A stretch of 32,000 nucleotides of DNA from Alkalilimnicola ehrlichii MLHE-1 (GCF_000014785.1 NC_008340.1:150001-182000), one strand, 5' to 3'; positions 2,500 through 32,000 are shown, counted from the stretch's first letter. A program made the numbers and translations. Notes: generated from the sequence alone by a model not told the origin.

Positions 2500-2512
2500 A
2501 CGGGGGATGGGC

Positions 2513-2767
2513 TCAGGCCTCTTCCAGCTTCGATTCCACGAAGTCGCAGAGGCTGCCCACGGTCTCGAAGGTCTCGGCACTGACGTCGTCGTCCTCGACC
2601 ATGATGCCAAAGCGCTGTTCCAGCTCGGTGATGACGGATACCACCGCCATCGAGTCCAGCTCCGGAAGGTCCCCCAACAGCACGGTGTCGCGGTCGAACG
2701 AGCGGGCGCGGCCATTGAGGCTCAGCGCGCTGTCCAGGATCTCCCTGACCTGGTCTAGACTTGACAT
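2513..2767 (-). CDS. Acyl carrier protein (exosortase A locus type)
   Basis: ORF 2513..2800 trimmed to ATG 2767 (MSSLDQVREILDSAL...), with a GGAGG SD about 10 nt upstream. Phosphopantetheine attachment motif LGDLPELDSMAVVSVITELE; about 84 aa and acidic, as expected for an ACP. Confidence 0.85.
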   Translation of the reverse strand: MSSLDQVREILDSALSLNGRARSFDRDTVLLGDLPELDSMAVVSVITELEQRFGIMVEDDDVSAETFETVGSLCDFVESKLEEA

Positions 2768-10424: not shown

Positions 10425-11633
10425 CTAGCCCCGCCTCCCCGGCACGGCCGGCAAGGGGTGTTCGGCCAGCGCCTGATCGTAGACCCTCATGTAGCCCTCC
10501 ACCATGGCCTCCATGCTGAATACCGCCTCCGCCCGGGCCCGCGCGGCCTCGCCCTCGCGCTGCCGCCGTTCCGGGTCGTCCAGGTAGGCCTGGAGGTGCC
10601 GGGCGAGGGTTGACGGATCGCCTGCCGGGACCAGCGTGCCGGTCTCGCCGGGCCGCACCAGGTCCGGGTTGCCGCCCACCTCGGTGGCGACCACTGGCAG
10701 CCCGCAGGCCATGGCCTCCAGGACGGTGTTGCAGATGCCCTCGGCGAGTGACGGCAACACGAACAGGTCCAGGGCGCGCATCACCGCCGCCACATCGTCC
10801 CGGGCGCCGGGCAGCCAGGCCTGATCCGCCACCCCGGCCTCCGCCAGCCGCCGGGCGACGCGCTCGCTCAGGGGGCCGTCGCCCACCAGCACCAGCCGCA
10901 GGCGGGGGAAGCGGGCGGGTGCCCGTTCGCGCAGCGCGATGAAGGCATCAACGAGATCCTCCGGGGCCTTGACCGCCTGCATGCGCATCACGCTGCCCAC
11001 CACCAGGCTGCCCTCCGGCGCGAAGCCGTCCGGCAGTGGCGAGGCCTCGTCCCGACGGCGGGGCCTGAAGCGGTGGGTGTCCACACCGTTGCAGACGTGG
11101 TGCAACCGCCCCTCCGGCACGCCGATGGCACCGGCCAGGTAGTCCAGCTGCTGGCGCGACAGGGCGATATAGCGCCCCACCAACGGTCGGGCCAGGCGGC
11201 GCATCAGGCGGTGTTTGGTGCGGGCGCCGTCGAGATCGCCGATATCCCAGCCGTGCTCACCGTGGATGCGTGCCCGCACGCCGGCCGCCGCGGCGGTGGC
11301 CTGGGCCTCCAGGGTGGCGAGGTTGCGGGTGTGGACGATGGCCGGGCGCAACGACCGCAGCAGCCGGTGCAGGCGCCGATGCACCCCCAGGTCCTTGCCC
11401 TCGCGCTTGTGCAGGGCGTGCAGGCTCACATCATCGCGGTGGATGCGCTGGCTGAAGTCGGTGTACCGGGTCATGCAGACGATGGCGTGGCGGTAGCGCT
11501 CGGCCGGCATGTGGTTGATCAGGTTGACCAGGCCGTTCTCCATGCCGCCCACGTCCAGGCGGTGGATGATATGGGCCACCAGCGGGCGCTCGTCGCCCGG
11601 GGCCGCCGTTGCCAGGGGGCGGGCCGCGCTCAT
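10425..11633 (-). CDS. Sugar transferase, PEP-CTERM/EpsH1 system-associated (stp2-like GT-B glycosyltransferase)
   Basis: 402-aa ORF. HIIHRLDVGGMENGLVNLINHMP is the hallmark N-terminal motif of this family as I recall it. C-terminus has EGICNTVLEAMACGLPVVATEVGGNPDLV. ATGA overlap with xrtA (11630..11633). Confidence 0.85.
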   Translation of the reverse strand: MSAARPLATAAPGDERPLVAHIIHRLDVGGMENGLVNLINHMPAERYRHAIVCMTRYTDFSQRIHRDDVSLHALHKREGKDLGVHRRLHRLLRSLRPAIVHTRNLATLEAQATAAAAGVRARIHGEHGWDIGDLDGARTKHRLMRRLARPLVGRYIALSRQQLDYLAGAIGVPEGRLHHVCNGVDTHRFRPRRRDEASPLPDGFAPEGSLVVGSVMRMQAVKAPEDLVDAFIALRERAPARFPRLRLVLVGDGPLSERVARRLAEAGVADQAWLPGARDDVAAVMRALDLFVLPSLAEGICNTVLEAMACGLPVVATEVGGNPDLVRPGETGTLVPAGDPSTLARHLQAYLDDPERRQREGEAARARAEAVFSMEAMVEGYMRVYDQALAEHPLPAVPGRRG

Positions 11634-13204
11634 GGTCCCGCCACGCCGTCGAGCAGGCGGAGCGCCTGGGGCAGGGCCTGCGCCGCGTACTGCGCCAATG
11701 CGGCCTCGGCCTCCGCGGGGTCGTTGCGGTAGTCGGCGTAGAGGACCACCAGGGCGGCGTCGTCCCGCCCGCCCAGCAGGCGGCTGAGGGCCTCTCGTGC
11801 CTTGACCTCGTGGCCGCTGGTGGTCAGCCGGCCACCCACCCAGTACCAGCGCCAGGCCACCACCCGGCGGCCATCCGGGCCGGAGAGCAGCACCCGGTCG
11901 CCCTGCCGGTCGATGCCGGGCACGGCGGTCCGGCCGCCGCTGTGCTGTCGCCAGTCGTCGCGGTGACGGCCGGCCAGGGTGTTGGCCCAGCCGACCATGT
12001 TGCCGTGGCGGTGCTGGGCGCGATAGTAGTCGATGTGGAGGCCAACGGCGTGCCCGGCCTCCTCCTGGACGACCAGGCCGCCGCGGCTGGCGCGGGCGTT
12101 ACGGTAGCCGGGGGTCCAGGGCTCGGCGTCGGCCTCGCTCGCGGCCTGCCAGCCCTCGACCAGCAGCGGGCCACTGCCCAGGCCCTGCACTTCGCCCAGG
12201 TCCCGGTGGTTCATCCAGCCGGCATAGAGTGGGCCGCTGACAGTGAGCAGCAGCGCCAGGGCGGTGGCGGTGACCAGGCGCCCGGTGCGGGGCGCGGGCT
12301 CGGCTACCCCGGTGCCTGGCGTCTTGTCCCCGCTGTTCTGGCCTGTGGACAGGTGGTCTTCCCGCCAGAGGGCCCCGATCAGGAACATCAACAGGATGAC
12401 CACCCCGAAGAAGACCCAGCCATAGAGTAGGTGGTCCACCCCGGCGGCCAAGCGCATGTCGCTCAGGTGGCCGATCATCACGATGCCGTAGGCGCGCAGC
12501 CAGTTGGCAACGATGGGCACGAGGATGGCGATGGCCACGAAGATCAGCCGCCGGGTCCAGCTTCGGTACATGAGATAGGCGAACAGGGTGCCCAGGGCCA
12601 CCGAGGCGATCAGGTAGCGCACGCCGCTGCAGGCGGCCACCACCGACCAGCGGCCGGTGGGCAGGTCGAAGAACAGGCCGTCCCGGTAGACCGGGACCCC
12701 GGTGAGGCGGATGGCGCCCACCGTGAAGTCGGCGGTCCAGATCATCATCGGCTCCACCATGAATTCGCCGAAGGGTACGGCGAACAGCAGGTAGGCCAGC
12801 GGGAACTGCAGCCGGCGGGTGATCTCGCCGCCGAGCACCAGCCAGACCAGGGCCGGGACCATCAGCACGGCGGCGAACTGGCGCACCGAGATGACATCCA
12901 CCAGCTCGCCCATCACCCACATCAGGGTGATCAGCACCAGCGGGATGACGGCCAGCAGGCAGGGCCGGGGCTGCAGAGACGCCAGCTCATGGCGCAGGCG
13001 GAAGACCAGGAAGGCCACGATGGGGACGATGAGAAACCCGTGGGCGAAGGTCTCCGAGCGCTGCCAGGTCTCCACCATGCTGGTGAAGGTGGGGAAGAAC
13101 GCCACCAGCAGCGCGGTCAGCGCTACCGCCATGGCGGTCAGCGCCCGGGGCCAGCCCGGTGCCGGGTGCACCGCCCCGGCGCCCTGCGACCACTCAACGG
13201 CCAT
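11630..13204 (-). CDS. xrtA: Exosortase A (XrtA/EpsH) fused to an EpsI-family domain
   Basis: 524-aa polytopic ORF. Exosortase catalytic signatures AACSGVRY (Cys192/Arg196), VANWLRAYGIVMIGH (Asn233/Arg236/His246) and WQRSETFAHGFLI. After a linker and an extra TM helix (aa ~307-325, nt ~11630..12286) comes an EpsI-like domain with AWRWYWVGGRLTTSGHEVKA. Confidence 0.9.
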   Translation of the reverse strand: MAVEWSQGAGAVHPAPGWPRALTAMAVALTALLVAFFPTFTSMVETWQRSETFAHGFLIVPIVAFLVFRLRHELASLQPRPCLLAVIPLVLITLMWVMGELVDVISVRQFAAVLMVPALVWLVLGGEITRRLQFPLAYLLFAVPFGEFMVEPMMIWTADFTVGAIRLTGVPVYRDGLFFDLPTGRWSVVAACSGVRYLIASVALGTLFAYLMYRSWTRRLIFVAIAILVPIVANWLRAYGIVMIGHLSDMRLAAGVDHLLYGWVFFGVVILLMFLIGALWREDHLSTGQNSGDKTPGTGVAEPAPRTGRLVTATALALLLTVSGPLYAGWMNHRDLGEVQGLGSGPLLVEGWQAASEADAEPWTPGYRNARASRGGLVVQEEAGHAVGLHIDYYRAQHRHGNMVGWANTLAGRHRDDWRQHSGGRTAVPGIDRQGDRVLLSGPDGRRVVAWRWYWVGGRLTTSGHEVKAREALSRLLGGRDDAALVVLYADYRNDPAEAEAALAQYAAQALPQALRLLDGVAGP

Positions 13205-21498: not shown

Positions 21499-21848
21499 TG
21501 CTGCTCAGACCCCTGCCGGCTATTGGGCCGGCGCGGCACTACGTTGGAACCAGTCCGTCCCGACGGGGACGACGCCTGTCACTTATTCAAGCACAAAAAT
21601 AGCAGTCTGCCCGGCGGATTCAGCGGGCCCTTTAAGGGGGGGCGTGGTGCGCCGGGCGCCCGGCCCCCGGTCTCCACGCATGCGGTGTCGACATCCTTTA
21701 CAACCGTAGGCAGCGGGGTGGGGGTCGGAACAGCGAGAGTGCCAGATTATCGAACTAGTAACAACGATTTATCGATCCCGGTCTGAATATTGCTGGATTG
21801 CATGAAAAATACTCGAAGCCAGCCGCTCGTCTCGGGCAAGGGGATGGA
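21499..21848. promoter_or_regulatory. Divergent intergenic control region between the epsF operon (-) and the PilZ gene (+)
   Basis: 350 bp non-coding with the lowest GC in the window. AT-rich blocks at 21581-21603 and 21745-21812; direct repeat TTATCGA at 21747-21753 and 21769-21775 (22-bp spacing). No promoter hexamers could be assigned confidently. Confidence 0.45.
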
Positions 21849-22421
21849 ATGAACGTAGAAGAACTGGCTGAAGAACTGGCCGATTTTTGGGCCTCAGCGC
21901 TGGTGGAACGCGACTGGGCGGGTCGGCTGGAGCTCATGAACCGGATCCACGAGCAGTTGTATAAGGATCTCGAGGATGAGCGCACCTTCCGTCAGGTCTC
22001 CCTTCATTTCGTGGCCGCCGCCATCCATCGATTGGGCGATCCGCCGGTGACGTCGGATGCCCAGGCCGAAATCTACGCCCAGTCCGCCGACGAGGCCCAT
22101 TGCCAGGCGGCCCGGCTCTGGTGGAAGCATGGTCGTGGCGGGAACGAGGCCGGTGAAGCGGCGGGCGAGGAAAGGCGGCGGTATCAGCGCCGAGTGGTGG
22201 ATGAGCCGAGCCTGGTGTGGATCGGGGAGCACACGGTGGCCTGCCGTCTGGTGGACCTGTCGGCCGGCGGCGCCCGTGTGACCGCCTTCGCGACGGACCT
22301 TGGTGTGGGCACACAGGTGCGGGTGGCCATGCCGGATGGCGAGGTGCAGCCGGCCAAGGTGGTACACGCCAATGCCTGCAGCGCGGGGCTGCGTTTTGAG
22401 CCGGTACAGCGGGCGGCGTGA
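21849..22421 (+). CDS. PilZ-domain (c-di-GMP-binding) protein with an uncharacterised N-terminal domain
   Basis: ORF 21798..22421 trimmed to ATG 21849 (MNVEELAEELADFW...), with an AAGGGGA SD 5 nt upstream. The C-terminal ~70 aa carry both PilZ signatures, RRRYQRR (RxxxR) and DLSAGGARV (DxSxxG). Confidence 0.7.
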   Translation: MNVEELAEELADFWASALVERDWAGRLELMNRIHEQLYKDLEDERTFRQVSLHFVAAAIHRLGDPPVTSDAQAEIYAQSADEAHCQAARLWWKHGRGGNEAGEAAGEERRRYQRRVVDEPSLVWIGEHTVACRLVDLSAGGARVTAFATDLGVGTQVRVAMPDGEVQPAKVVHANACSAGLRFEPVQRAA

Positions 22422-22681
22422 CTGCGCGCGGGTTGGCGGGATAGGGGTGTGGACGGGTGTTGAATGTGCGGAAAGTGGTAAGGACCCTGCCTGATGCCGG
22501 GGGGTACATGCCACGTCGTGCTAAAGATGCCCCTGTTTTTAGTCGTTTTATCGCAGGGACTAACCGTATAGTCTTAGCACTCTGGCTGCGCTTGCGGCCG
22601 ATGCAGGGGGGAGGGTCACCGGACTTGCGGTCCGCCGACGACGCCCTTCTGGCCTTGGGTCGAACCGGTGAACCAGATGCG

Positions 22682-23395
22682 ATGAACAATTTCACACACC
22701 AGGTGGTTCTGGCGGATTGCGCCGCACCCCGGCGTGACCACTTCCGGCTGCGCCATCAGGTCTTCTGCCAGGAGTATCGCTTTGAGCCGCCGGAGCAACA
22801 TCCGGAGGGGCTCGAACGGGATGCCCACGATACCCAGTCCGTCCATTTCCTCGTCGGCCCACCGGACCCGGCATCTCGGGTTGCTACACCCTGGGTCGGC
22901 GCCATGCGGCTGGTCCGCCCCGCGCCCCTGGCATTACCGATGAAGGGGGTGCTCTGCCCTGATGGGGTAGCGGCTGGTGGCTTGGATGGCCGTCACCGCT
23001 CGATCCTGGAGGTCTCCCGCCTGCTGCTCCGGCCCGAGGCCCGGGGTGGCCGCTCGCCGGTGATGATCTACCTCCTGTGCCGTGCCGCTTGGGCCTATGC
23101 CATGCAACACGGGTTTGAGGAGCTCTACTTCATGGTCACGCCCGCCCTGGCCCGGTTCGTGCGCGGCCAGGGGTTACCCCTTCAGGTTTTTGCGCCCCCG
23201 GTGGATCACCGCGGGGTCCGGTTGCCCTGTCGGGTTTCCACCACCGACCTGGGCGCGGGGCTGCGCGTCTGGCGTGGTCGTTTACCCGGCCCGGTCCCGG
23301 CGACCCCATACCTGAGTTATGCCGAGCACGTGGCGAGGCCCGAGGCGGCCGGGTTTTTGGGAGCGGGCGAGTCATGGGCCGTCCGTATGGCTTGA
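22682..23395 (+). CDS. PEP-CTERM/exosortase system-associated acyltransferase, LuxI-fold / N-acyl amino acid synthase-like (divergent paralog 1)
   Basis: ORF 22457..23395 trimmed to ATG 22682 (MNNFTHQVVLADCAAPRRDHFRLRHQVFCQEYRFE...). Retains the motif series FRLRHQVFC, LERDAHD (ExDxxD), GAMRLVRP and LEVSRLLL (ExSR), shared with paralog 2 and with LuxI-type synthases. Confidence 0.75.
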   Translation: MNNFTHQVVLADCAAPRRDHFRLRHQVFCQEYRFEPPEQHPEGLERDAHDTQSVHFLVGPPDPASRVATPWVGAMRLVRPAPLALPMKGVLCPDGVAAGGLDGRHRSILEVSRLLLRPEARGGRSPVMIYLLCRAAWAYAMQHGFEELYFMVTPALARFVRGQGLPLQVFAPPVDHRGVRLPCRVSTTDLGAGLRVWRGRLPGPVPATPYLSYAEHVARPEAAGFLGAGESWAVRMA

Positions 23396-23439: not shown

Positions 23440-24195
23440 ATGTCTGATGCGCCTTTGGCCGAGGCCTTTGAAGCCTACTTTGACTACTCGCTGGCCCGCG
23501 GTGATGAGCAGGAGGAGATTCACCGGCTGCGCTATGACGTCTATTGCCGTGAGTTCGGCTTCGAGCGGGAGGAGGACTGCCCCGGGGGGCTGGAGCAGGA
23601 TGAGTTCGATGCCCTCTCATGGCACGGGCTGCTCCGCCACCGTGGCACGGGACGGGCCGCCGGCTGTGTGCGGGTGGTGCCCGCCGACGCCGGGGCACCG
23701 GGTGCCGCCCTGCCCATCGAGAAGCACTGCGGGGAGAGCTTCTTTCACCCGGAACTCCGGCCCGATCTGTTGGAGCGCGAACACGTTTGCGAGGTTTCCC
23801 GGCTGGCGGTGCATGGGGTGTTCCGCCGTCGGCGCGGTGAGTCGAAGACCCCGTTGGGTGACGTGGACGGCCTGGAAATCCCGGCAGAGCATTACCGGAC
23901 CTTTCCCTTGATGGCGGTGAGCCTGTTCATGGCCGCCACCGCCCTGACCGGGTTGACCGGTAAGCACCATGTATTCGCCATGATGGAGCCCCGGCTGGCA
24001 CGCCTGTTGAGCCGCAGCGGATTGGTGTTCGTGCAGGTGGGTGATGTGCTGGACTACCATGGGCTGCGTGCGGCCTTCTATATTCATCGGGACAACGCTG
24101 TACGCGAACTGAAACAGTCCGCGATGCTGAACCGCCTCTACCAGCGGGCGCTGGAACAACTTGGGGAGGGCTTCTACGCCACGACCACGGCCTAG
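23440..24195 (+). CDS. PEP-CTERM/exosortase system-associated acyltransferase, LuxI-fold / N-acyl amino acid synthase-like (paralog 2, family-typical)
   Basis: 251-aa ORF with an AGGAG SD 6 nt upstream. Motifs: HRLRYDVYCREFGFE, LEQDEFD, GCVRVVP, CEVSRLAVHGVFRRRRGE, MEPRLARLL. Confidence 0.8.
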   Translation: MSDAPLAEAFEAYFDYSLARGDEQEEIHRLRYDVYCREFGFEREEDCPGGLEQDEFDALSWHGLLRHRGTGRAAGCVRVVPADAGAPGAALPIEKHCGESFFHPELRPDLLEREHVCEVSRLAVHGVFRRRRGESKTPLGDVDGLEIPAEHYRTFPLMAVSLFMAATALTGLTGKHHVFAMMEPRLARLLSRSGLVFVQVGDVLDYHGLRAAFYIHRDNAVRELKQSAMLNRLYQRALEQLGEGFYATTTA

Positions 24196-24216
24196 GGAGT
24201 CGGGCTCGCCCCCTAC

Positions 24217-24820
24217 GTCACTGCGAGGAGGCGAAGCCGACGTGGCAGTCTACCGCTCTGGATCGCCGCGGGCCTCCGGCCCTCGCGATGACGGGGATGG
24301 CGCCCCCACCGTCACTGCGAGGAGCGAAGCGACGCGGCAGTCCAGGCGCCGCATGGATCGCCACGGGCCTTCGGCCCTCGCGATGACGGGGGAAGGCCTC
24401 CGGCCCTCGCGATGACGGAGAGGAGGCCTCCGGCGCTCGCGATGACGGGGATGGCGCCCCCACCGTCACTGCGAGGAGCGAAGCGACGCGGCAGTCCAGG
24501 CGCCGCATGGATCGCCACGGGCCTCCGGCCCTCGCGATGACGGAGAGGAGGCCTGCGGCCCTCGCGATGACAGGGATGGCGCCCCCACCGTCACTGCGAG
24601 GAGCGAAGCGACGCGGCAGTCCAGGCGCCGCATGGATCGCCACGGGCCTCCGGCCCTCGCGATGACGGAGAGGAGGCCTGCGGCCCTCGCGATGACGGGG
24701 ATGGCGCCCCCAACGTCACTGCGAGGAGCGAAGCGACGCGGCAGTCCAGGCGCCGCTTGGATCGCCACGGGCCTTCGGCCCTCGCGATGACGGGGGAAGG
24801 CCTCCGGCCCTCGCGATGAC
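24217..24820 (+). repeat. Mosaic tandem array of 76-77-nt imperfect-palindrome (hairpin) elements with short half-elements and 18-nt linkers (BIME/REP-like)
   Basis: Long units (GTCACTGCGAGGAGCGAAGCGACGCGGCAGTCC...GGATCGCCACGGGCCTCCGGCCCTCGCGATGAC) at 24217-24292, 24311-24387, 24465-24541, 24590-24666 and 24715-24791. Short units (...GGCCTCCGGCCCTCGCGATGAC) at 24388-24416, 24417-24446, 24542-24571, 24667-24696 and 24792-24820. Linker GGGGATGGCGCCCCCACC at 24293-24310, 24447-24464, 24572-24589 and 24697-24714. The blocks 24465-24589 and 24590-24714 are 123/125 identical. Confidence 0.9.
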
Positions 24821-24881
24821 GAAGGTGGGTGCGCTCGCAACGATGGTTTCTTCACCGCTTCCCGGATGCAGGGAGCCAGCG

Positions 24882-25784
24882 ATGGCAGGGTTTGATTACC
24901 GGACCGCCTTCACCCGCAACGTGGGCTGGGTGACCGAAGAGGAGCTGCAGCGCCTGAGGCGGGCGCGGGTGGCTATCGCCGGCCTGGGTGGCGTCGGCGG
25001 AGCCCATCTGCTCACACTGGCGCGCCTGGGTGTCGGCGCCTTTCACATCTCCGACTTCGACCACTTCGAGTTGCACAACATGAACCGTCAGGCCGGGGCC
25101 TGCATGAGCCGGTTGGGCCAGCCCAAGGTCGAGGTCCTGGCGGAGATGGCCCGCGACATCAACCCCGAACTGGACCTGACCCTGTTTCCCGAGGGCGTGG
25201 GCCGGGGGAACCTGGCAGACTTCCTGGACGGGGTCGATGTCTACGTGGACGGCCTGGATTTTTTCGCCTTCGAGGCCCGCCGGCAGGTGTTCGCAGAGGT
25301 GGCCCGCCGGGGTATCCCCGCCGTCACGGTGGCCCCCCTGGGCATGGGCGGGGCGTTGCTTAACTTCGACCCGCAGGGCATGAGCTTCGACGCCTATTTC
25401 GACCTGCGCGACGGGCTCTCCGATGAGGACCTGGCGCTGCGCTTCATGATGGGCCTGGCCCCGGCCATGCTGCACATGGGCTACCTGGCCGATGCGGCGG
25501 CGGTGGATCTGGGCGCCCAGCGAGGGCCTTCCACCCCGATGGCCTGCGACCTGTGTGCCGGCATCATGGGCACCGAGGTGCTCAAGATCCTGCTGGGTCG
25601 CGGGCGGGTGGTCTGGGCCCCCCGGGGGATGCACTTTGACGCCTACCGGCAGCGCCTGGCTCACACCTGGCGCCCCGGGGGCAACCGCAACCCCTTGCAA
25701 CGGCTGCTGATGGCCATCGCCCGGCGGCGACTGGCGAAACTGCGCACGGCCCAGCGGCCGGCGCAGACTGGAGGTGCACGATGA
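24882..25784 (+). CDS. ThiF/MoeB/HesA-family (E1-like) adenylyltransferase
   Basis: ORF 24816..25784 trimmed to ATG 24882 (MAGFDYRTAFTRNVGWVTEEELQRL...), with a GGGAG SD 6 nt upstream; the upstream codons lie in the repeat array. Nucleotide-binding motif VAIAGLGGVGGAHLLTLARLGVG, then ISDFDHFELHNMNRQ. One CxxC (ACDLCAG). Confidence 0.8.
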   Translation: MAGFDYRTAFTRNVGWVTEEELQRLRRARVAIAGLGGVGGAHLLTLARLGVGAFHISDFDHFELHNMNRQAGACMSRLGQPKVEVLAEMARDINPELDLTLFPEGVGRGNLADFLDGVDVYVDGLDFFAFEARRQVFAEVARRGIPAVTVAPLGMGGALLNFDPQGMSFDAYFDLRDGLSDEDLALRFMMGLAPAMLHMGYLADAAAVDLGAQRGPSTPMACDLCAGIMGTEVLKILLGRGRVVWAPRGMHFDAYRQRLAHTWRPGGNRNPLQRLLMAIARRRLAKLRTAQRPAQTGGAR

Positions 25785-26590
25785 GCGAATGGTGGCGTGG
25801 CCGGTTTCTCGCCGGTGGCGTTTTGATCCTGGCCCTGGCCGGGCCGGTAGCTGCCGACGAGGAGGCGGGCCGGGCCCTGGCCCAGGCGGTCTATGACCGG
25901 CCGGATGGCGACGACGCAGTCACCCGCGGCCGCATGGTGCTCGGCGGCGAGGGCCGGCGTGAGCGGGTGCGTGAGAGTTATGAATACCGCCTGGACGGCG
26001 ACGACGGCGAGAGCTGGAACCTCATCCGGTTCACCCACCCCGCCAACATCGCGGATACCGGGTTGCTGGTCCACAACCGGCCGGACGACGCCAGCGACCA
26101 GTGGCTGTTTCTGCCGGCGGCCCAGCGGGTGCGCCGGATTAGCAGCGAGAACCGGGGCGGCAGCTTCGTGCAGTCGGAGCTCTGGTTCGAGGACCTGGAG
26201 GACCGCGAGCCCCACGAGGACACCCACCGTCTTCTGGGGGAGGACCACTACCAGGGGGTGGAGGTCAAGCTGCTGGCGAGCGTCCCTGTCGACCCCGATA
26301 ATTCGGTCTATAGCAAGCGGCTGAGCTGGGTGCATCCCGATACCCTGATCCCGCTGCGCATCGACTTCTACCAGTCCGGCGAGGAGCCGGTGAAGCGCCT
26401 GACGGTGGATCGCATCGAGCGGATTCAGGGGTACTGGACAGTGATGCGCAGCACCATGGCCGACCTGCGCCGCGGCCGGGAAACCACACTGGAAGTCGAG
26501 GAAGTGGTGTATGACCAGGGACTGCCCCGTGACCTGTTCACCAGCCGGGCCCTCTCCGACCCGACTCTGGAGCGTGACTATCGCCCCTGA
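25781..26590 (+). CDS. Outer-membrane lipoprotein-sorting protein family (LolA-like fold), periplasmic
   Basis: 269-aa ORF with a GGAGG SD and an ATGA overlap with the ThiF-like stop. Signal peptide MSEWWRGRFLAGGVLILALAGPVAA/DE. Family-typical core DQWLFLPAAQRVRRISSENRGGSFVQSELWFEDLEDRE. Confidence 0.75.
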   Translation: MSEWWRGRFLAGGVLILALAGPVAADEEAGRALAQAVYDRPDGDDAVTRGRMVLGGEGRRERVRESYEYRLDGDDGESWNLIRFTHPANIADTGLLVHNRPDDASDQWLFLPAAQRVRRISSENRGGSFVQSELWFEDLEDREPHEDTHRLLGEDHYQGVEVKLLASVPVDPDNSVYSKRLSWVHPDTLIPLRIDFYQSGEEPVKRLTVDRIERIQGYWTVMRSTMADLRRGRETTLEVEEVVYDQGLPRDLFTSRALSDPTLERDYRP

Positions 26591-28007
26591 GCGCGAGCGC
26601 ACGCATTGGACCGGCTTCGTGTTGTCCTGTGTCATCCTGGCGCTGCTGTTGGCCGTGCTACTGACGGCCCCCGCCGCCGCAGAGGACGTGCTGATCTTCG
26701 GCGAGCCGGACCCGGACGAGCCGGAACCGCCGGAGGCGGAGGCCGCCGAGATGCCCTCCCCCTGGGACACCCGCATCGAGCGCGGCCTGCTGGAGCTGGG
26801 CCAACTGGCCGCCAACCGGCGCACCGCCGATTTCAGCCACCACGGTCGGGCCGAGTTCCGCGCCGGCCGCACGCTGGCCGGAGACTGGGAGCTGCGCCTG
26901 GGCGCCCGCCTGGACGGCCACTGGCAGGGCGGGGGCGAGCGCTCCGGCGTCTCGCGGTTGGACGCCGACTACGCCGAGAACTGGCTGCGTTACCGGGGCC
27001 GCGATTGGCGGCTCACCGTCGGGACCCAGCGGGTACTCTGGGGGCGGGTGGATGAGATCCCGCCCACCGACCGCCTGAGCACCAAGGACCTCACCCGCTT
27101 TGCGCTGGACGAGATGGTGGACCGGCGACGGACCAATCCCGCTGTCCGCCTGGAGTTCTACCAGGCCGGCTGGGCGGTGGACCTGCTGTTCCTGCCGCTC
27201 TTCCGCCCCGCGGAGCTGCCCGACCGGGACAGCGTCTGGCATCCGGTGGACCGCGAGCGTGGCCGGCTCTTCGGCCTCCCGGCGGACCCCGCCCTGGCAC
27301 CCTTCATCCGTGACGCCCGCATCGACGACGATGTCTCCGGCGATGGCGATGGCGGGGGCGGGGTGCGCCTTAGCCGCGGCGGCGCCGGTGCGGACTTCGC
27401 CCTCACCCTCCAGCGTGCGCGCCACTCCCAGCCCCACTACCGGGTGGACGACGCCACCCGCGCCGCCCTGCTGGGCGCGGGCCCGCCGCCGGATCGGCCC
27501 ACGTTGCATGCCGAGCACCCGCGCACCTGGGTGGTGGGCGGCGACCTGGCCACGGAACTGGGCGCCTGGACCCTGCGTGCCGAGGCCGCCTGGCTCAGTG
27601 ACGTGCCGGTCACCCGGGCCGATGACCTGCGCCAGCGGACGGTGGCGGGTTTTGACTGGGTGCTGGGCGTGGAGGGCTTTCCCGGGGATCGCGACTTCCG
27701 CACCACCCTGCAGGTGGCCGGGCAGCACCTGGACGGTGCCGGGGGGGTGCTGGAGGCGCGCGAGGCCTACTACCTGACCGGCGAACTGGAAAACCCCTTC
27801 GCCGACCACCAGTGGCGGGCCCGGGTGCGCTTCTCCGCGGGGCTCGACCGCCGCGATGTCTATCTGAACCCGGAACTGGCCTGGATCGGCTTCGAACCCC
27901 ACGAGTTCTACGCCGGCCTGCACTGGTTGGACGGGCGTGATGACACCGCTGGCGGGTTTTACCGGGACAACCGCATGCTGGTGCTGGGCTGGCGGGGACA
28001 GTTCTGA
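26574..28007 (+). CDS. Putative outer-membrane beta-barrel protein (family not recognised)
   Basis: ORF 26511..28007. The start is uncertain: ATG 26511 has a GAGGA SD but overlaps the upstream gene by 80 nt; GTG 26574 and GTG 26619 are alternatives. Hydrophobic signal sequence FVLSCVILALLLAVLLTAPAAA/ED, amphipathic strand-like repeats, and a C-terminal ...LVLGWRGQF (terminal Phe, an OM-barrel signature). Confidence 0.6.
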   Translation: MTIAPERERTHWTGFVLSCVILALLLAVLLTAPAAAEDVLIFGEPDPDEPEPPEAEAAEMPSPWDTRIERGLLELGQLAANRRTADFSHHGRAEFRAGRTLAGDWELRLGARLDGHWQGGGERSGVSRLDADYAENWLRYRGRDWRLTVGTQRVLWGRVDEIPPTDRLSTKDLTRFALDEMVDRRRTNPAVRLEFYQAGWAVDLLFLPLFRPAELPDRDSVWHPVDRERGRLFGLPADPALAPFIRDARIDDDVSGDGDGGGGVRLSRGGAGADFALTLQRARHSQPHYRVDDATRAALLGAGPPPDRPTLHAEHPRTWVVGGDLATELGAWTLRAEAAWLSDVPVTRADDLRQRTVAGFDWVLGVEGFPGDRDFRTTLQVAGQHLDGAGGVLEAREAYYLTGELENPFADHQWRARVRFSAGLDRRDVYLNPELAWIGFEPHEFYAGLHWLDGRDDTAGGFYRDNRMLVLGWRGQF

Positions 28008-30262
28008 TGCGCTGGCTGCTGGACCGCCCCCGTCTTGCCCTGGCCGTGCTCGCGCTGCTGGTGCTGGGGCCGGGGCCGATGCTGCTGCAGGTCAACCTGG
28101 ACAACGCGCCGGAGGCCTATTTCCCGCTGGACGCCCCGGCAGTGGTGCTGGACAACGAGCTGCGGGAGGAATTCCCCCAGGATCAGGTGCTGGTGGCGCT
28201 GTTCGAGGGGGAGCACCTGTTCGAGGCGGATTTCCTTGGCCGGCTGCACGCCCTCGCCGAGGCCCTGGAGGGCAAGGAGCGGGTGGAGCGGGTGCTCGGC
28301 CTGACCAGCACCGACCACATCCGCGCCACGGCGGACGGCTTTGCCGTGGAACCGCTGGTGGACGCCTCCGCGCTGGACCGGTTCGACCCCGCGGGCTGGC
28401 GCGCGCGGGCGCTGGGCGACACCTTTGCCCCCGGCCTGATTGTCGCCCACGACGGGGAGGCCACGGCCCTGGTGGTCCGCCCCCACGTGCTGGAGGACAG
28501 CCTGCAGCGCCTGGAGCTGGAGCAGTCGCTGCGCCGCGCCATCAAGGCCCACGGCCTGAGCGCGGAGCTGACCGCCATCGCCGGCCATGTGGCGCTGGAC
28601 GTGGCCCAACTCCGGGCCATGATCGGCGACCTGGCCCTGCTGGTGCCCGGCACCATGGGCATCGGCCTGCTGCTGCTCTGGTGGTTGTTCCGGCGCTGGC
28701 TGGTGGTGGGGCTGGCCGCGGCCACCATCAGCGCCGTCACCGGCTCGGCGCTTACCCTGCTGGTAGTCACCGGCAAGCCCTTCACCCTGATCACCGCCAT
28801 CATGCCGCCGCTGCTCACCGCGCTGACGGTGGCGATGATGATGCATTACTTCAACGCCGTGCTGCACGCCGCCCAGCGCGGTTACACCGGCCGCGCCCGG
28901 GTGGAGGCGGCCTTGCAGGCCGTGGCCCGGCCCACCCTGTTCATGGCCCTGACCACCGCCGCCGGCCTGGCCTCGCTCAGCGTCAGCCCCATCCGCCCCA
29001 TCGAGGCCTTCGGCCAGGTCTCCGCCTTTGGGGTGCTGGTGGCCGCCGCCTGCGTACTCGGGCTGCTGCCGCCGATCCTGGCCCGGTATGATCGCGGCCC
29101 CTGGGTGCGGCAGCAGCGGGGCATGCGCCGGCTCGACGGCTTCCTGCGGCTGGCCGCGCACCTGGCGGTACGCCGGGCCGGCTGGGTGGTGGCCGCGGCG
29201 GTGCTGGTCTTCGCTGTCGCCATCCCGCAGATCCGCCACGTGGAGGTGGAAACCGATCTTTACGCCTTCTTCGACGAGGGCCACGAGATCACCCGCGCCA
29301 CCCGCCAGGTGGAGGAGCGCCTCGCCGGGGTGATGGCCATGGAGGTGGTCTTCGACGGCCCCGACTGGGACAGCCTGATGGCGCCGGAGCGGCTGCAGGC
29401 CATCCACGCGGTGCAGGCCTGGCTGGATGCCCGCCCGGAGGTGGATTACAGCCTGTCGCTGCCGGATCTGGTGGCGGAGATGCACTGGGCCTTCAACGAG
29501 GAGGACCCGGACTACCGCGCCGTGCCCGACAACGAACCGCTGGTCGCCCAGTACCTGTTCATCTACGACGGCCAGGACCTGTGGGACGTGGTGGACCGCG
29601 ACTTCACCCGCAGCCGGCTGTTGCTCAACCTCAACGCCACCGGTGCCCAGGAACTCAATACCCTGATGGCTGACCTGCGGGGCCACCTGGAGGCCGAACC
29701 GCCGGCCGATCTGGCGTGGGATATCGCCGGTATGGGCCGGCTGTTCGCGGATCAGGAGCGGCTGCTGATCCAGGGGCAGTTGCACAGCTTGATGGTCGTG
29801 GTGGCGCTGCTCGCCGTGCTGATGCTCCTGATGTGGCGGTCCGTCTCCGTGGCCGCCGTCAGTATGGTGCCCAACCTCACCCCCATCGTGCTCATCTTCT
29901 CGCTGATGGGTCTGCTGGGTATCTGGCTGGACATGGCCACCGCCATGATCGCCAGTGTCGCGGTGGGGATCGCCGTGGACGACACCATCCACATCCTCCA
30001 TGCTTACCTGCGCCGCCGGCGCGCCGGCAGCCCGGCGGCCTGGGCGGTGGCCCGCAGCTTCCGCCAGAGCGGGCGGGCGGTGACGGCCACCACCCTGGTG
30101 TTGATCGCCCAGTTCCTGCTGGTGGCCCTGTCGGACTTCCAGCCCACCCAGAGCTTCGGCCTGCTCACGGCCTTCGGGCTGGCAGCGGCGCTGGTGTACG
30201 ACCTGCTGGTGCTGCCGGCAGTGCTGGTGCTGCTGAGCCGGGTCCAACGGTTGAAAGAATGA
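28007..30262 (+). CDS. MMPL / RND-superfamily inner-membrane exporter (HpnN-like lipid transporter architecture)
   Basis: 751-aa ORF; the start shares a base with the upstream stop (TGATG 28005..28009). Two repeats of one TM + periplasmic loop + a five-TM bundle (e.g. LALLVPGTMGIGLLLLWWLF..., MVVVALLAVLMLLMW...PNLTPIVLIFSLMGLLGIWLDMATAMIASVAVGIAVDDTIHIL). Confidence 0.85.
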   Translation: MRWLLDRPRLALAVLALLVLGPGPMLLQVNLDNAPEAYFPLDAPAVVLDNELREEFPQDQVLVALFEGEHLFEADFLGRLHALAEALEGKERVERVLGLTSTDHIRATADGFAVEPLVDASALDRFDPAGWRARALGDTFAPGLIVAHDGEATALVVRPHVLEDSLQRLELEQSLRRAIKAHGLSAELTAIAGHVALDVAQLRAMIGDLALLVPGTMGIGLLLLWWLFRRWLVVGLAAATISAVTGSALTLLVVTGKPFTLITAIMPPLLTALTVAMMMHYFNAVLHAAQRGYTGRARVEAALQAVARPTLFMALTTAAGLASLSVSPIRPIEAFGQVSAFGVLVAAACVLGLLPPILARYDRGPWVRQQRGMRRLDGFLRLAAHLAVRRAGWVVAAAVLVFAVAIPQIRHVEVETDLYAFFDEGHEITRATRQVEERLAGVMAMEVVFDGPDWDSLMAPERLQAIHAVQAWLDARPEVDYSLSLPDLVAEMHWAFNEEDPDYRAVPDNEPLVAQYLFIYDGQDLWDVVDRDFTRSRLLLNLNATGAQELNTLMADLRGHLEAEPPADLAWDIAGMGRLFADQERLLIQGQLHSLMVVVALLAVLMLLMWRSVSVAAVSMVPNLTPIVLIFSLMGLLGIWLDMATAMIASVAVGIAVDDTIHILHAYLRRRRAGSPAAWAVARSFRQSGRAVTATTLVLIAQFLLVALSDFQPTQSFGLLTAFGLAAALVYDLLVLPAVLVLLSRVQRLKE

Positions 30263-30632: not shown

Positions 30633-31610
30633 ATGAACACAAAAAGACTCATGCTCGCTTCGCTTTGCGCGGGCACCTTCGCCTTCGGCGCGGGCGCTGC
30701 ATCGGCGGCGGAGATCATCGACTTTGATATCGACCTGGATGCCACGGCGGATTTCAGCGGCGGGGTTAGCGATGTTCGGCGTATCCAGTTCGACTTGAAT
30801 ACCCAGACCTTTCAATATGTGCAGGATCCGCTGAACCCCGTCCAAGTTGGGGATGTATTCTTCGACCGCGGTTATGGCGATGCCTCTGCGTACCGGACCT
30901 CGGGCGGTGGTTCCGCCGTTCAAGAGCCCGGAGGAGACTTTTTGGGCATTACCTACTCCATGGGGCTGCTATGGGATGAGCTCCGCGGGGTGATTACCTC
31001 GGCGGGTGCCAATGCCGCCGGTGATTGGGTGGTGACCGCCGACTACACCTCGGTGGGTCCCAACAACTTCCAGTTGTTCGTCGCGGACCTCAACCCCGGG
31101 TATGGCCAGGACTATGACGGGGCCGCCGCCCACTTCTCGGGGGGCGAGCAGGTCATGGAGATGGCGTTGGTGCAGGGTGACAGTATCCTCGAATTCGAAG
31201 GCGGTCCGGCTGGGGATTTTGTCGAGGGGACATTCACCTTCGAGTTCCAGGTGATTGACGTGTTGCCGGGCTTCTGGTTCACCAGCGATGGCGAGGACTT
31301 CGCCGATCTGATCGAGGATGACGAGGGGGCGCCCACCTTCATCGTCAGCGCCTTCGCCAGCGCCGGTACTATCCAGGAGCCGCCGCCCGAGACCTTCTTC
31401 GGCGATGACGCTAATAGCGACGCGTTCGGCGACGAGCGGGAGGGCCAGACCCTGTTCAGCGAGACCCAGTCCACCCACGATGGCAGCCTGCGCTTCGCGG
31501 TGCCGGAGCCGGGTACCCTGGCGCTGATGGGCACCGCTCTGCTGATCCTCGGTGGCCTCCTGGGTGTGGGTGGCATCCGCCGCCGCACCGGGTCGGCACA
31601 AGCGGCCTGA
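30633..31610 (+). CDS. PEP-CTERM sorting-domain protein (exosortase substrate), acidic secreted protein
   Basis: ORF 30519..31610 trimmed to ATG 30633, with an AGGAGA SD 5 nt upstream. Signal peptide MNTKRLMLASLCAGTFAFGAGAASA/AE. The C-terminus VPEPGTLALMGTALLILGGLLGVGGIRRR is the PEP motif + TM helix + Arg cluster. Confidence 0.85.
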   Translation: MNTKRLMLASLCAGTFAFGAGAASAAEIIDFDIDLDATADFSGGVSDVRRIQFDLNTQTFQYVQDPLNPVQVGDVFFDRGYGDASAYRTSGGGSAVQEPGGDFLGITYSMGLLWDELRGVITSAGANAAGDWVVTADYTSVGPNNFQLFVADLNPGYGQDYDGAAAHFSGGEQVMEMALVQGDSILEFEGGPAGDFVEGTFTFEFQVIDVLPGFWFTSDGEDFADLIEDDEGAPTFIVSAFASAGTIQEPPPETFFGDDANSDAFGDEREGQTLFSETQSTHDGSLRFAVPEPGTLALMGTALLILGGLLGVGGIRRRTGSAQAA

Positions 31611-31704: not shown

Positions 31705-31838
31705 AGGTTACCTGTTCTTCTGTCGATGGCACCGGCTTGCCCTCACACCCGCCGCTCCGATGGCTCCGGATCCTCCGCTTCCTCCATTGCGAGCGCAGCC
31801 CCTGTCAGTCAGAGTAAGGGCTGAAGGCTTCCCCCGCC

Positions 31839-32000
31839 GTCATCGCGAGGGCCGAAGGCCCGTGGCGATCCAGGGCGGTAGACTGCCACGTCGGCTTCGC
31901 CTCCTCGCAGTGACGGTGGGGGCGCTCGCAGTGACGTGCCGGGCCTCGTCATTGCGGAGAGCGAGCCCCCTCACCCCTGTCATTGCGAGGAGCGGGCCCC
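31839..32000 (-). repeat. Inverted copy of the 76-nt hairpin element plus further half-elements; cluster continues past the window end
   Basis: 31839-31914 is the reverse complement of unit 24217-24292 with 73/76 identity. It shares that unit's variant core (GCCGACGTGGCAGTCTACCGC) rather than the majority core. It is followed by GGTGGGGGCGC (reverse complement of the array linker) and by GTCATTGCG(A/G)G half-sites at 31948-31960 and 31979-31994. Confidence 0.85.

Follow-up and report, generated by a model that had tools for sequence, protein, structure and literature searches.

A stand-alone ThiF-family enzyme in an exosortase locus of Alkalilimnicola ehrlichii is probably a small-molecule cyclase encoded with an envelope exporter

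Known systems and the locus under study

OxzA and OxzB, known in Pseudoalteromonas rubra and more than 50 proteobacteria, pair an acyltransferase with an enzyme of the ThiF family: OxzA makes N-acyl tyrosine, and OxzB turns N-decanoyl-tyrosine into an oxazolone only in the presence of ATP (de Rond, Asay & Moore, bioRxiv 10.1101/2020.06.11.147165). Mycobacterium tuberculosis has an acyltransferase, TyzA, a stand-alone ATP-dependent ThiF cyclase of 318 amino acids, TyzB, and a flavin-dependent oxidase, TyzC (PMC10404671); the order of the Tyz steps was revisited in PMC12856293. In TrzS, cyclisation precedes desaturation: the non-oxidised cyclised product accumulates with an oxidase-dead variant or at limiting O2, and every product is lost when the ThiF domain carries the substitution D217A; oxazolones are destroyed by acid and by methanol (PMC12856293). 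Here we analyse a stand-alone ThiF-family gene of Alkalilimnicola ehrlichii MLHE-1, contained in a stretch of 32,000 nucleotides (GCF_000014785.1 NC_008340.1:150001-182000; hereafter the window, with positions counted from its first nucleotide). Judging from genes and their neighbourhoods, the encoded protein (hereafter ThiF) is probably a small-molecule adenylating cyclase of the OxzB/TyzB/TrzS lineage with an exported lipid product, and not an E1 enzyme acting on a ubiquitin-like protein.

Related chemistry and transport have been described elsewhere. PaaA and MccB are ThiF-family enzymes that send the adenylate to other nucleophiles, and a 2025 review names OxzB as the sole validated small-molecule case among ThiF/E1 enzymes beyond peptides, proteins and tRNA (PMC12596934). 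A link between acyltransferases of this kind and exosortase systems is already known (Craig, Cherry & Brady 2011, as cited in passages of PMC11072679 and PMC4897644), and in Methylomonas LW13 knockout of the exosortase-associated acyltransferase abolishes a polysaccharide band (PMC11072679). Cassettes encoding DUF1302, DUF1329, BNR and HAE3 proteins, AmeABCD among them, have been linked to the transport of hydrophobic molecules, for which passage through the envelope is proposed, or of a cell-wall component (PMC6394551; bioRxiv 10.1101/072470). The link between acyltransferase, ThiF and oxidase is known from work of 2020–2025 (bioRxiv 10.1101/2020.06.11.147165; PMC10404671; PMC12856293). Because the enzyme class has already been characterised, the puzzle of an 'orphan E1', from which the original prediction started, is largely solved.

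The ThiF protein belongs to the OxzB-type lineage

The ThiF gene (24882–25784, plus strand) encodes a stand-alone adenylating enzyme of 300 amino acids with a PF00899 domain (144 bits). Its start is consistent with a GGGAG Shine–Dalgarno sequence and with an NCBI protein of 300 amino acids that is 99% identical (P0001). The protein belongs at equivalogue level to NF006077 (498 bits, cut-off 266), a family annotated as 'hypothetical protein', and is an orthologue of the OxzB-type cyclase domain. It scores 319 bits against NF011424, a ThiF–nitroreductase model of 679 amino acids, over positions 23–303, that is, the ThiF half; the nitroreductase gene found next to ThiF in relatives aligns to positions 325–677 of the same model. 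Identity to the ThiF half of a fused protein of Nitrococcus mobilis Nb-231 is 62% over 293 amino acids (E = 2e-129). That protein, A4BSM0, is listed as OxzB-like in Table S1 of de Rond et al. (bioRxiv 10.1101/2020.06.11.147165), and its gene is locus L072 of our tblastn set. More generally, the window protein is 62–68% identical to the ThiF halves or partners of ThiF–nitroreductase oxazolone synthetases.

A HMMER search of 1.84 billion cluster representatives with the window ThiF gave 435 representatives below 1e-30, and the nearest representatives at the 50%-identity level are mostly proteins of 650–690 amino acids with 45–65% identity. A Pfam scan of ten representatives revealed the domain orders ThiF–nitroreductase, nitroreductase–ThiF, GNAT (Acetyltransf_5)–ThiF and methyltransferase–ThiF, as well as methyltransferase–ThiF–nitroreductase and, without a nitroreductase, methyltransferase–ThiF–FeeM N-acyl amino acid synthase. 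In several close relatives of ThiF the fused N-terminal domain is an S-adenosylmethionine-dependent methyltransferase (P0196, P0164, P0166 and P0263). Such fusions echo the methyltransferase–ThiF–nitroreductase clusters of stieleriacine producers (PMC12479983) and suggest putative further product classes, for example methyl esters. At E ≤ 1e-10 the OxzB-type lineage comprises at least 8000 database proteins; small-molecule ThiF/E1 enzymes have been regarded as very rare, and this lineage is large.

All 81 orthologues keep the Gly-rich loop G34–G40, R69, K82 and D123/D126 unchanged. D126 aligns with D127 of Escherichia coli ThiF and is of the same residue class as D217 of TrzS. There is one CxxC pair, of which C222 is invariant and C225 is present in at least 90% of orthologues; both cysteines, a possible metal site or thioester, sit in a C-terminal subdomain for which the ThiF and TcdA alignments offer no equivalent. 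The signature of sulfur-carrier activases, two CxxC zinc motifs together with a conserved cross-over-loop cysteine, is not found in the window protein, which has the single CxxC only.

Modelling of ThiF alone, as had been proposed from the DNA, yields a confident E1-like fold (AlphaFold2, predicted local distance difference test (pLDDT) score 88) but does not resolve the subfamily: in a Foldseek search AclA, ThiF, PaaA, MoeB and UBA5 all have template modelling (TM) scores of 0.6–0.7. The top structural match is PDB 9egb/9egc, 'AclA from Tenacibaculum discolor in complex with substrate' (released 2025), which may be another small-molecule ThiF enzyme. The best PDB sequence matches are TcdA, ThiF and MoeB (E = 1e-16 to 4e-12), and the likeness is confined to the N-terminal Rossmann half (residues ~16–165). 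On the window protein the curated models of these three subfamilies all stay below their cut-offs: for ThiF, NF006395 (89 versus 159 bits) and TIGR02356 (86 versus 275); for MoeB, NF004281 (80 versus 266) and TIGR02355 (63 versus 377); and for TcdA, NF011696 (67.5 versus 304).

Acyltransferase genes lie directly upstream of ThiF

The two genes directly upstream of ThiF supply the adjacent N-acyl amino acid synthase found beside characterised enzymes of this class. Acyl2 (23440–24195, plus strand) is an OxzA/TyzA-type, PEP-CTERM/exosortase-associated N-acyl amino acid synthase, with 200.8 bits against TIGR03694 (cut-off 111.95) and a FeeM domain (PF21926). Its paralogue Acyl1 (22457–23395, plus strand) is N-acyl amino acid synthase-like, matching PF13444 and FeeM PF21926, reaching 104 bits against TIGR03694 (cut-off 112) and bearing a weak similarity to OlsB; its true start is probably downstream of 22457, and its homologues in Thioalkalivibrio are ~238 amino acids long. 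Acyl2 is ~38% identical, over the tblastn match, to an acyltransferase-like stretch of locus L072 (6489–7136), which is found upstream of the oxzB-like gene of Nitrococcus and on the other strand, in agreement with the position of oxzA in Table S1 of de Rond et al.

Gene order and linkage in relatives

Neighbour maps were drawn for the best 80 genome loci of 563 tblastn-confirmed ThiF relatives, and linkage was counted in the 43 of these with full 10-kb flanks. The commonest gene directly 3' of ThiF in the 80 mapped loci encodes an Acg/nitroreductase-fold protein of ~360 amino acids, which aligns to the latter half both of NF011424 and of the Rv1355c family model; in ~13 of the 80 the two are fused in a single open reading frame (ORF) of 657–686 amino acids, and in most of the rest the nitroreductase gene comes straight after ThiF. 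This oxidase occurs within 10 kb in 33 of the 43 full-flank loci; where there is one, it nearly always adjoins ThiF directly or is fused to it. Of the 43, 22 have a homologue of the acyltransferases no more than 10 kb away, and both acyltransferase paralogues are kept in all ten oxidase-less loci with full context. An exporter is encoded in 23 of the 43: nine have a LolA-like protein, a barrel and a resistance–nodulation–division (RND) transporter, and 14 have paired LolC/E-type ABC permeases, often with a barrel like the third gene of the window module (ORF3).

The full set recurs in three gene orders. In Thioalkalivibrio the order is PilZ, Acyl1, Acyl2, ThiF, LolA-like, barrel, RND and is the same in eight genomes; the Acyl2 stop overlaps the ThiF start, and the gap from ThiF to the LolA-like gene is only 4 nucleotides. 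In Ectothiorhodospira the RND gene is directly 3' of ThiF, and the LolA-like, barrel, Acyl2 and Acyl1 genes are divergent. In two uncultured gammaproteobacteria Acyl2–ThiF faces Acyl1–LolA–barrel–RND. That two acyltransferases, ThiF, LolA-like protein, barrel and RND stay together through these rearrangements is good evidence that they form one functional module.

Loci of the Azoarcus/Thauera type (L016, L017, L022, L024 and others) combine an acyltransferase–ThiF–oxidase module with two LolC/E-like FtsX permeases and lack the RND set; an ORF3-like barrel is added in other loci (L014, L027, L061 and L073). The permeases are a non-orthologous replacement of the RND exporter, and the recurrence of this exchange argues that the product is exported.

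In Janthinobacterium (L019, L030, L032, L033 and others) ThiF and the oxidase lie between a gene for an M16 peptidase of 947 amino acids and a PepA-like PEP-CTERM gene, and no acyltransferase homologue is present within 10 kb. PepA-like PEP-CTERM genes adjoin ThiF modules in several genera.

ThiF is translationally coupled to a three-component exporter

From the DNA, ThiF had been read as the first of four genes forming one translational unit with a three-part envelope transporter. The overlaps on which this relied are present in the sequence. The ThiF stop codon TGA (25782–25784) overlaps the ATG of the LolA-like gene (25781–25783) to give ATGA at 25781–25784, with GGAGG 8 nucleotides upstream. 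The LolA-like stop (26588–26590) overlaps ORF3 by 17 nucleotides if ORF3 starts at GTG 26574, as an independent gene caller has it (477 amino acids), or by 80 if it starts at ATG 26511, and ORF3 and the RND gene are joined by TGATG at 28005–28009. On public contigs the independent caller gave the same products of 300, 269, 477 and 751 amino acids for ThiF, LolA-like, ORF3 and RND. Coupling therefore stands, supported by the overlaps and by their recurrence in relatives, but the extent of the unit was underestimated: the overlap of the upstream acyltransferase stop with the ThiF start in Thioalkalivibrio indicates that it is larger than four genes. Because the order and near-identical junctions recur in eight Thioalkalivibrio genomes and the cluster persists elsewhere, the tight linkage goes beyond chance.

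'Three-part envelope transporter' is a fair description, with an RND pump, a periplasmic LolA-like protein and a barrel. The LolA-like gene (25781–26590, plus strand) encodes a periplasmic lipid-binding protein of 269 amino acids (PF17131, 195 bits) that carries a cleavable signal peptide and lacks a lipobox; it matches DUF1329 in part (34.5 bits), and its PDB matches are 9tp6, 4z48 and 3bk5 ('outer membrane lipoprotein-sorting protein'), with E down to 4e-35. ORF3 (26574–28007, plus strand) is assigned as a DUF1302-like outer-membrane beta-barrel from its homologues and an AlphaFold2 model. Its own sequence has no match in Pfam (PF06980 included), NCBIfam or the PDB; DUF1302 (PF06980) is matched by 6 of 40 homologues (best E = 8e-8), and the model built from these 40 is an all-beta barrel (pLDDT 90.7) that Foldseek finds porin-like (TM score ~0.42). 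Most ORF3 homologues (P0274–P0345) carry N-terminal LysM, SPOR or AMIN peptidoglycan-binding domains, an extension absent from the Alkalilimnicola protein, and some are annotated 'FimV/HubP'. The RND gene (28007–30262, plus strand) encodes an inner-membrane transporter of the HAE3/MMPL type (PF03176 MMPL, 81 bits). Its best NCBIfam match, TIGR00921 HAE3, reaches 157 bits, under the cut-off of 352; HpnN-like scores 77 bits, and its PDB matches are MmpL4 and AcrB-type proteins. Between 24882 and 30262 there is no BNR/COG4447 gene: the four genes abut or overlap and are all assigned.

No ubiquitin-like partner and no flavin oxidase within reach

A scan of all six frames of the window for ORFs of at least 30 amino acids ending in Gly-Gly returned five, all Arg/Pro/Gly-rich and out of frame inside GC-rich genes, and thus no credible partner, as had been predicted. 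Sulfur-carrier, thiamine and molybdopterin genes are absent from the window and from the 10-kb flanks of the relatives, and the clade is not that of TcdA (67 versus 304 bits); neither finding that the original prediction named as speaking against it was made. A missing ubiquitin-like partner is to be expected if, as we propose below, ThiF acts at the free carboxylate of a small N-acylated amino acid that comes from the neighbouring synthase.

The missing oxidase is the more unusual feature. With a profile hidden Markov model built from 29 split oxidases only, nothing with E < 1 was found in the window, nor in 14 related loci and their 10-kb flanks, and tblastn was likewise negative in the window and the oxidase-less loci. 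No oxidase is encoded within the 20-kb loci of 12 Thioalkalivibrio and Ectothiorhodospira genomes and two uncultured relatives; the same holds for the window and for a few other lineages. A search of a large protein database for an oxidase of Alkalilimnicola or Thioalkalivibrio was uninformative, as the best 120 matches were level at 54–58% identity and the query's own protein was missed. In a neighbour-joining tree of ThiF domains, the genes without an oxidase fall into several distinct groups embedded among oxidase-linked genes, pointing to repeated loss of the oxidase while ThiF was kept intact.

A putative pathway and its alternatives

What the sequences show for ThiF is its homology, the conservation of its catalytic residues, its linkage to and fusion with other genes, and the lack of an oxidase within reach. 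In the pathway that we propose, one or both of the adjacent exosortase-associated N-acyl amino acid synthases would acylate an amino acid. ThiF would then use ATP to adenylate the N-acyl amino acid's free alpha-carboxylate, and attack of the amide oxygen on the adenylate would give a 2-alkyl-5(4H)-oxazolone (azlactone). With no flavin-dependent oxidase (a desaturase of nitroreductase fold), the product would remain saturated, either an activated and electrophilic N-acyl-aminoacyl lipid or the outcome of that lipid's reactions. The RND pump, the LolA-like carrier and the DUF1302-like barrel would carry the lipid product across the envelope, and it may end in the cell-surface or exopolysaccharide context of the XrtA/PEP-CTERM locus. 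The identity of the substrate, cyclisation in preference to another fate of the adenylate, the product's export and what it does are inferred. The original prediction had suggested a non-canonical carboxylate as substrate, with an N-acyl amino acid made by the upstream acyltransferases as one candidate, and orthology, fusions and linkage all favour that candidate. An oxidase-less ThiF can still make a product, because TrzS without a working oxidase accumulates the cyclised species; and since TrzS cyclises before it oxidises, a saturated 5(4H)-oxazolone is the simplest prediction.

Several points weigh against this pathway. The Nitrococcus comparator is an OxzB homologue by bioinformatics only, so that the comparison is not with an assayed enzyme, and the Rv1355c/TrzS family model NF005901 gives only 67 bits on the window ThiF (cut-off 476). 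The assignment of the window ThiF, as of every stand-alone oxidase-less member, comes from genes alone. A dedicated exporter for an oxazolone is not obviously sensible, because saturated 5(4H)-oxazolones hydrolyse readily; the adenylate may instead be captured by another nucleophile, and the substrate of the transporter is deduced from linkage only. Two loci, L003 and L005 (Thioalkalivibrio thiocyanoxidans ARh2 and Thioalkalivibrio sp. ALJ3), keep PilZ–Acyl1–Acyl2–ThiF and have no LolA-like, barrel or RND gene within 10 kb downstream of ThiF; their exporter is dispensable or encoded elsewhere. Because these loci have the acyltransferases and ThiF without transporter genes nearby, coupling to export is not obligatory. 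Finally, coverage of this genome is the 32-kb window, and an oxidase may be encoded elsewhere in it.

This last point leads to the first alternative, an ordinary split oxazolone pathway in which the oxidase is encoded at a distance and the product exported by the RND system is either the usual acyl-oxazolone, unsaturated (4-ylidene), or an N-acyl-dehydroamino acid. On the ThiF tree split forms are mixed with fused ones, which makes the arrangement of ThiF and oxidase genes fluid, and an oxidase is nearby in most full-flank loci (33 of 43), the window being 32 kb of its genome. We nevertheless consider it unlikely. Where the oxidase is present it almost always touches ThiF, and even the profile finds none in the 12 Thioalkalivibrio and Ectothiorhodospira 20-kb loci, the two uncultured relatives and the window; the losses are several and independent, and the methyltransferase–ThiF–FeeM fusions also do without it.

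A comparably small chance attaches to ThiF acting as an amide or ester ligase, the adenylate or a transient azlactone being captured by a second amino acid, a deacetylated exopolysaccharide sugar or a protein, with export of the lipidated product. PaaA and MccB divert adenylates in this manner (PMC12596934). The same locus encodes two acyltransferase paralogues, a FemAB-like protein, a polysaccharide deacetylase and amidotransferases, and loss of the oxidase removes the step whose conjugation stabilises the ring; the lost polysaccharide band of the Methylomonas LW13 acyltransferase knockout (PMC11072679) would also fit. However, a ligase has no precedent in the OxzB/TyzB/TrzS clade, no active-site change is evident at 62–68% identity to oxidase-linked orthologues, and ThiF is cytoplasmic whereas exopolysaccharide and PEP-CTERM processing take place at or beyond the inner membrane.

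It is very improbable that ThiF works as MccB or PaaA does and adenylates the C terminus of a protein or peptide, for instance of a PEP-CTERM protein or of a small peptide missing from the annotation. The PEP-CTERM locus, the PepA-like genes beside ThiF modules in several genera and the presence of PaaA and MccB among the structural matches bring it to mind, and a cleaved PEP-CTERM C terminus had been put forward as a substrate from the DNA. That suggestion is disfavoured: ThiF is a bare E1 core of 300 amino acids with no RiPP recognition element or N-terminal peptide-clamp domain, and it lacks a signal peptide, while exosortases cleave at the membrane or in the periplasm. Moreover, the characterised members of the clade use small lipids, the fusions bring in acyltransferase, oxidase and methyltransferase domains, none of them peptide-binding, and no small conserved ORF accompanies ThiF. 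A canonical housekeeping E1-like enzyme (a ThiF/MoeB activase or TcdA) placed here by chance, to which the Pfam ThiF domain and the best PDB sequence matches (TcdA, ThiF and MoeB) might point, is effectively ruled out by scores of 63–89 bits against cut-offs of 159–377 over the N-terminal half only, by the one CxxC pair and the lack of a rhodanese domain, by the absence of ThiS/MoaD, thiamine and molybdopterin genes from the neighbourhood, and by a linkage to acyltransferase, oxidase and exporter that is conserved across many genera.

The surrounding exosortase locus

The window (G+C ~70%) is filled by an XrtA/PEP-CTERM exopolysaccharide locus, which contains exosortase A, the marker genes of the system and a PEP-CTERM substrate. 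On the minus strand, from 21498 down to ~700, lies an exosortase A exopolysaccharide operon of textbook type. Its products are a chain-length determinant (TIGR03007), a tyrosine autokinase, the outer-membrane protein TIGR03016, an ATPase, a polysaccharide deacetylase, a FemAB-like protein, the three glycosyltransferases of the system, XrtA, an amidotransferase, an AMP-ligase and hydrolase-2. Most of its genes exceed curated cut-offs, and the markers above them are TIGR03007, 03018, 03016, 03015, 03006, 03019, 03087, 03088, 03108 and 04063. Exosortase A itself (11630–13204, minus strand), with an EpsI domain, matches TIGR03109 with 351 bits. A single ORF of 669 amino acids (706–2715, minus strand) joins hydrolase-2 (TIGR03101, residues 76–332) to a family-2 glycosyltransferase domain (residues ~350–480). 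On the opposite strand, 2839–4695 (plus) encodes a second asparagine-synthase-like amidotransferase, with 278 bits against TIGR03108 (cut-off 817); as the alignment begins only at position 100 of the model, it apparently lacks the N-terminal region with the glutaminase nucleophile.

The divergent plus-strand genes are PilZ, the two N-acyl amino acid synthase-like genes, a 686-nucleotide gap filled with repeats, ThiF, LolA-like, ORF3, RND and PEP-CTERM. The first of them (21798–22421, plus strand) encodes a PilZ-domain protein (PF07238, E = 1.7e-7). A PilZ gene heads the acyltransferase–ThiF–exporter unit in the window and in all Thioalkalivibrio loci, a position that hints at cyclic di-GMP as a possible input to the lipid module. 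The last (30633–31610, plus strand) encodes a secreted PepA-like PEP-CTERM protein with a VPEP–transmembrane–RRR tail at 31500–31610 (C terminus ...VPEPGTLALMGTALLILGGLLGVGGIRRR) and partial matches to floc_PepA and other PEP-CTERM families; it is a probable exosortase substrate encoded beside the ThiF module.

The gap between Acyl2 and ThiF holds tandem repeats that resemble repetitive extragenic palindromic (REP) elements (24200–24830; four to five copies with a period of 125–154 nucleotides). Their core, GGCCCTCGCGATGACG, occurs ten times at 24200–24830 and once more, on the minus strand, at 31838–31853 after the PEP-CTERM gene, against 0.18 copies expected. As RNA or regulatory elements the repeats at 24200–24830 gave no Rfam match and no promoter or terminator consensus, and their folding is no better than that of shuffled sequences (z-score -0.6). 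They look like a dispersed REP-like element expanded by insertion at this junction, where the window has a 686-nucleotide tandem-repeat block in place of the 4-nucleotide overlap of Thioalkalivibrio; the block may decouple ThiF from the acyltransferases.

What the locus adds

Two features look new. One is the missing flavin oxidase partner, in the window and in relatives (Thioalkalivibrio and Ectothiorhodospira); we found no description in the literature of an oxidase-less, exporter-coupled version of ThiF. The other is a cyclase tied to a dedicated trans-envelope exporter within an exosortase locus, a bridge to oxazolone chemistry. We found no literature joining exosortase systems to that chemistry (the one text containing both words did so by coincidence, and Craig et al. 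2011 lies outside this survey), and the OxzB preprint (bioRxiv 10.1101/2020.06.11.147165) does not mention PEP-CTERM. The proposal offers a testable chemical hypothesis for the output of the acyltransferases, in which a reactive azlactone lipid reaches the cell surface, and an oxidase-less ThiF would be a simpler natural system in which to study the cyclase step alone. If the oxidase is encoded elsewhere, the finding shrinks to a correct functional annotation of the 'hypothetical' family NF006077. As a long shot, the saturated azlactone could serve as an exported N-acyl-aminoacyl donor that covalently lipidates exopolysaccharide or exosortase-processed PEP-CTERM proteins. Were this so, it would reveal what N-acyl amino acid synthases do in exosortase systems, a role long sought, and E1-type chemistry would have a new use, the making of a diffusible lipid acylating agent, which would make the finding considerably more important.

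Comparison with known systems

The window module shares with OxzA/OxzB the ThiF lineage (an OxzB-like protein on the published list is 62% identical), an N-acyltransferase gene immediately upstream and the absence of a ubiquitin-like partner, and, by analogy with OxzB, ATP-dependent activation of the carboxylate of an N-acyl amino acid is predicted. It differs in that OxzB is a ThiF–nitroreductase di-domain protein, whereas the window ThiF is without the nitroreductase half, and in that OxzAB is a two-gene operon for which neither an exporter nor an exosortase context is mentioned (bioRxiv 10.1101/2020.06.11.147165); the window has both.

TyzABC resembles the window in its stand-alone ThiF protein, its adjacent N-acyl amino acid synthase and an MMPL-family RND gene beside the cluster (mmpL9; PMC10404671); TyzB is likened to the window ThiF by architecture and description, not by sequence. 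Unlike the window, it has the TyzC oxidase, which is needed for tyrazolone, and it comes from an actinobacterium, with no LolA-like or outer-membrane components. The original prediction had called an E1-like enzyme in a lipid-exporter operon atypical. This was overstated, as the class is characterised and tyzABC adjoins an MMPL pump; the truly unusual point, which it did not raise, is the missing oxidase. In TrzA/TrzS (Rv1356c/Rv1355c) the ThiF domain cyclises the saturated N-acyl amino acid first, which is the situation predicted for the window, but TrzS is a fusion and its relationship to the window ThiF is distant (67 bits on NF005901 versus 476).

TcdA, the tRNA ct6A dehydratase and best PDB sequence match, is also a ThiF-family enzyme that forms an oxazolone ring through adenylation and cyclodehydration without a ubiquitin-like partner. 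Its substrate, however, is tRNA, and the similarity (64 bits, Rossmann half only) is far under the TcdA equivalogue cut-off.

Acyl2 is a full member of the TIGR03694 exosortase-associated synthases, in a textbook XrtA locus. The passages of the exosortase–synthase literature considered here (PMC11072679, PMC4897644) give no role to a ThiF gene; the window ThiF ties such a synthase to oxazolone chemistry. For the exporter, AmeABCD-type cassettes are the closest known kind: they encode together a periplasmic protein of the LolA superfamily, which the window shares, and an HAE3-type RND transporter and a DUF1302-type barrel, of which the window RND protein and ORF3 are putative counterparts. The window set has three components rather than four (no BNR/COG4447), its barrel is too divergent to match DUF1302, and its LolA-like protein is of the short PF17131 type (269 amino acids), in contrast to the ~450-amino-acid DUF1329 protein.

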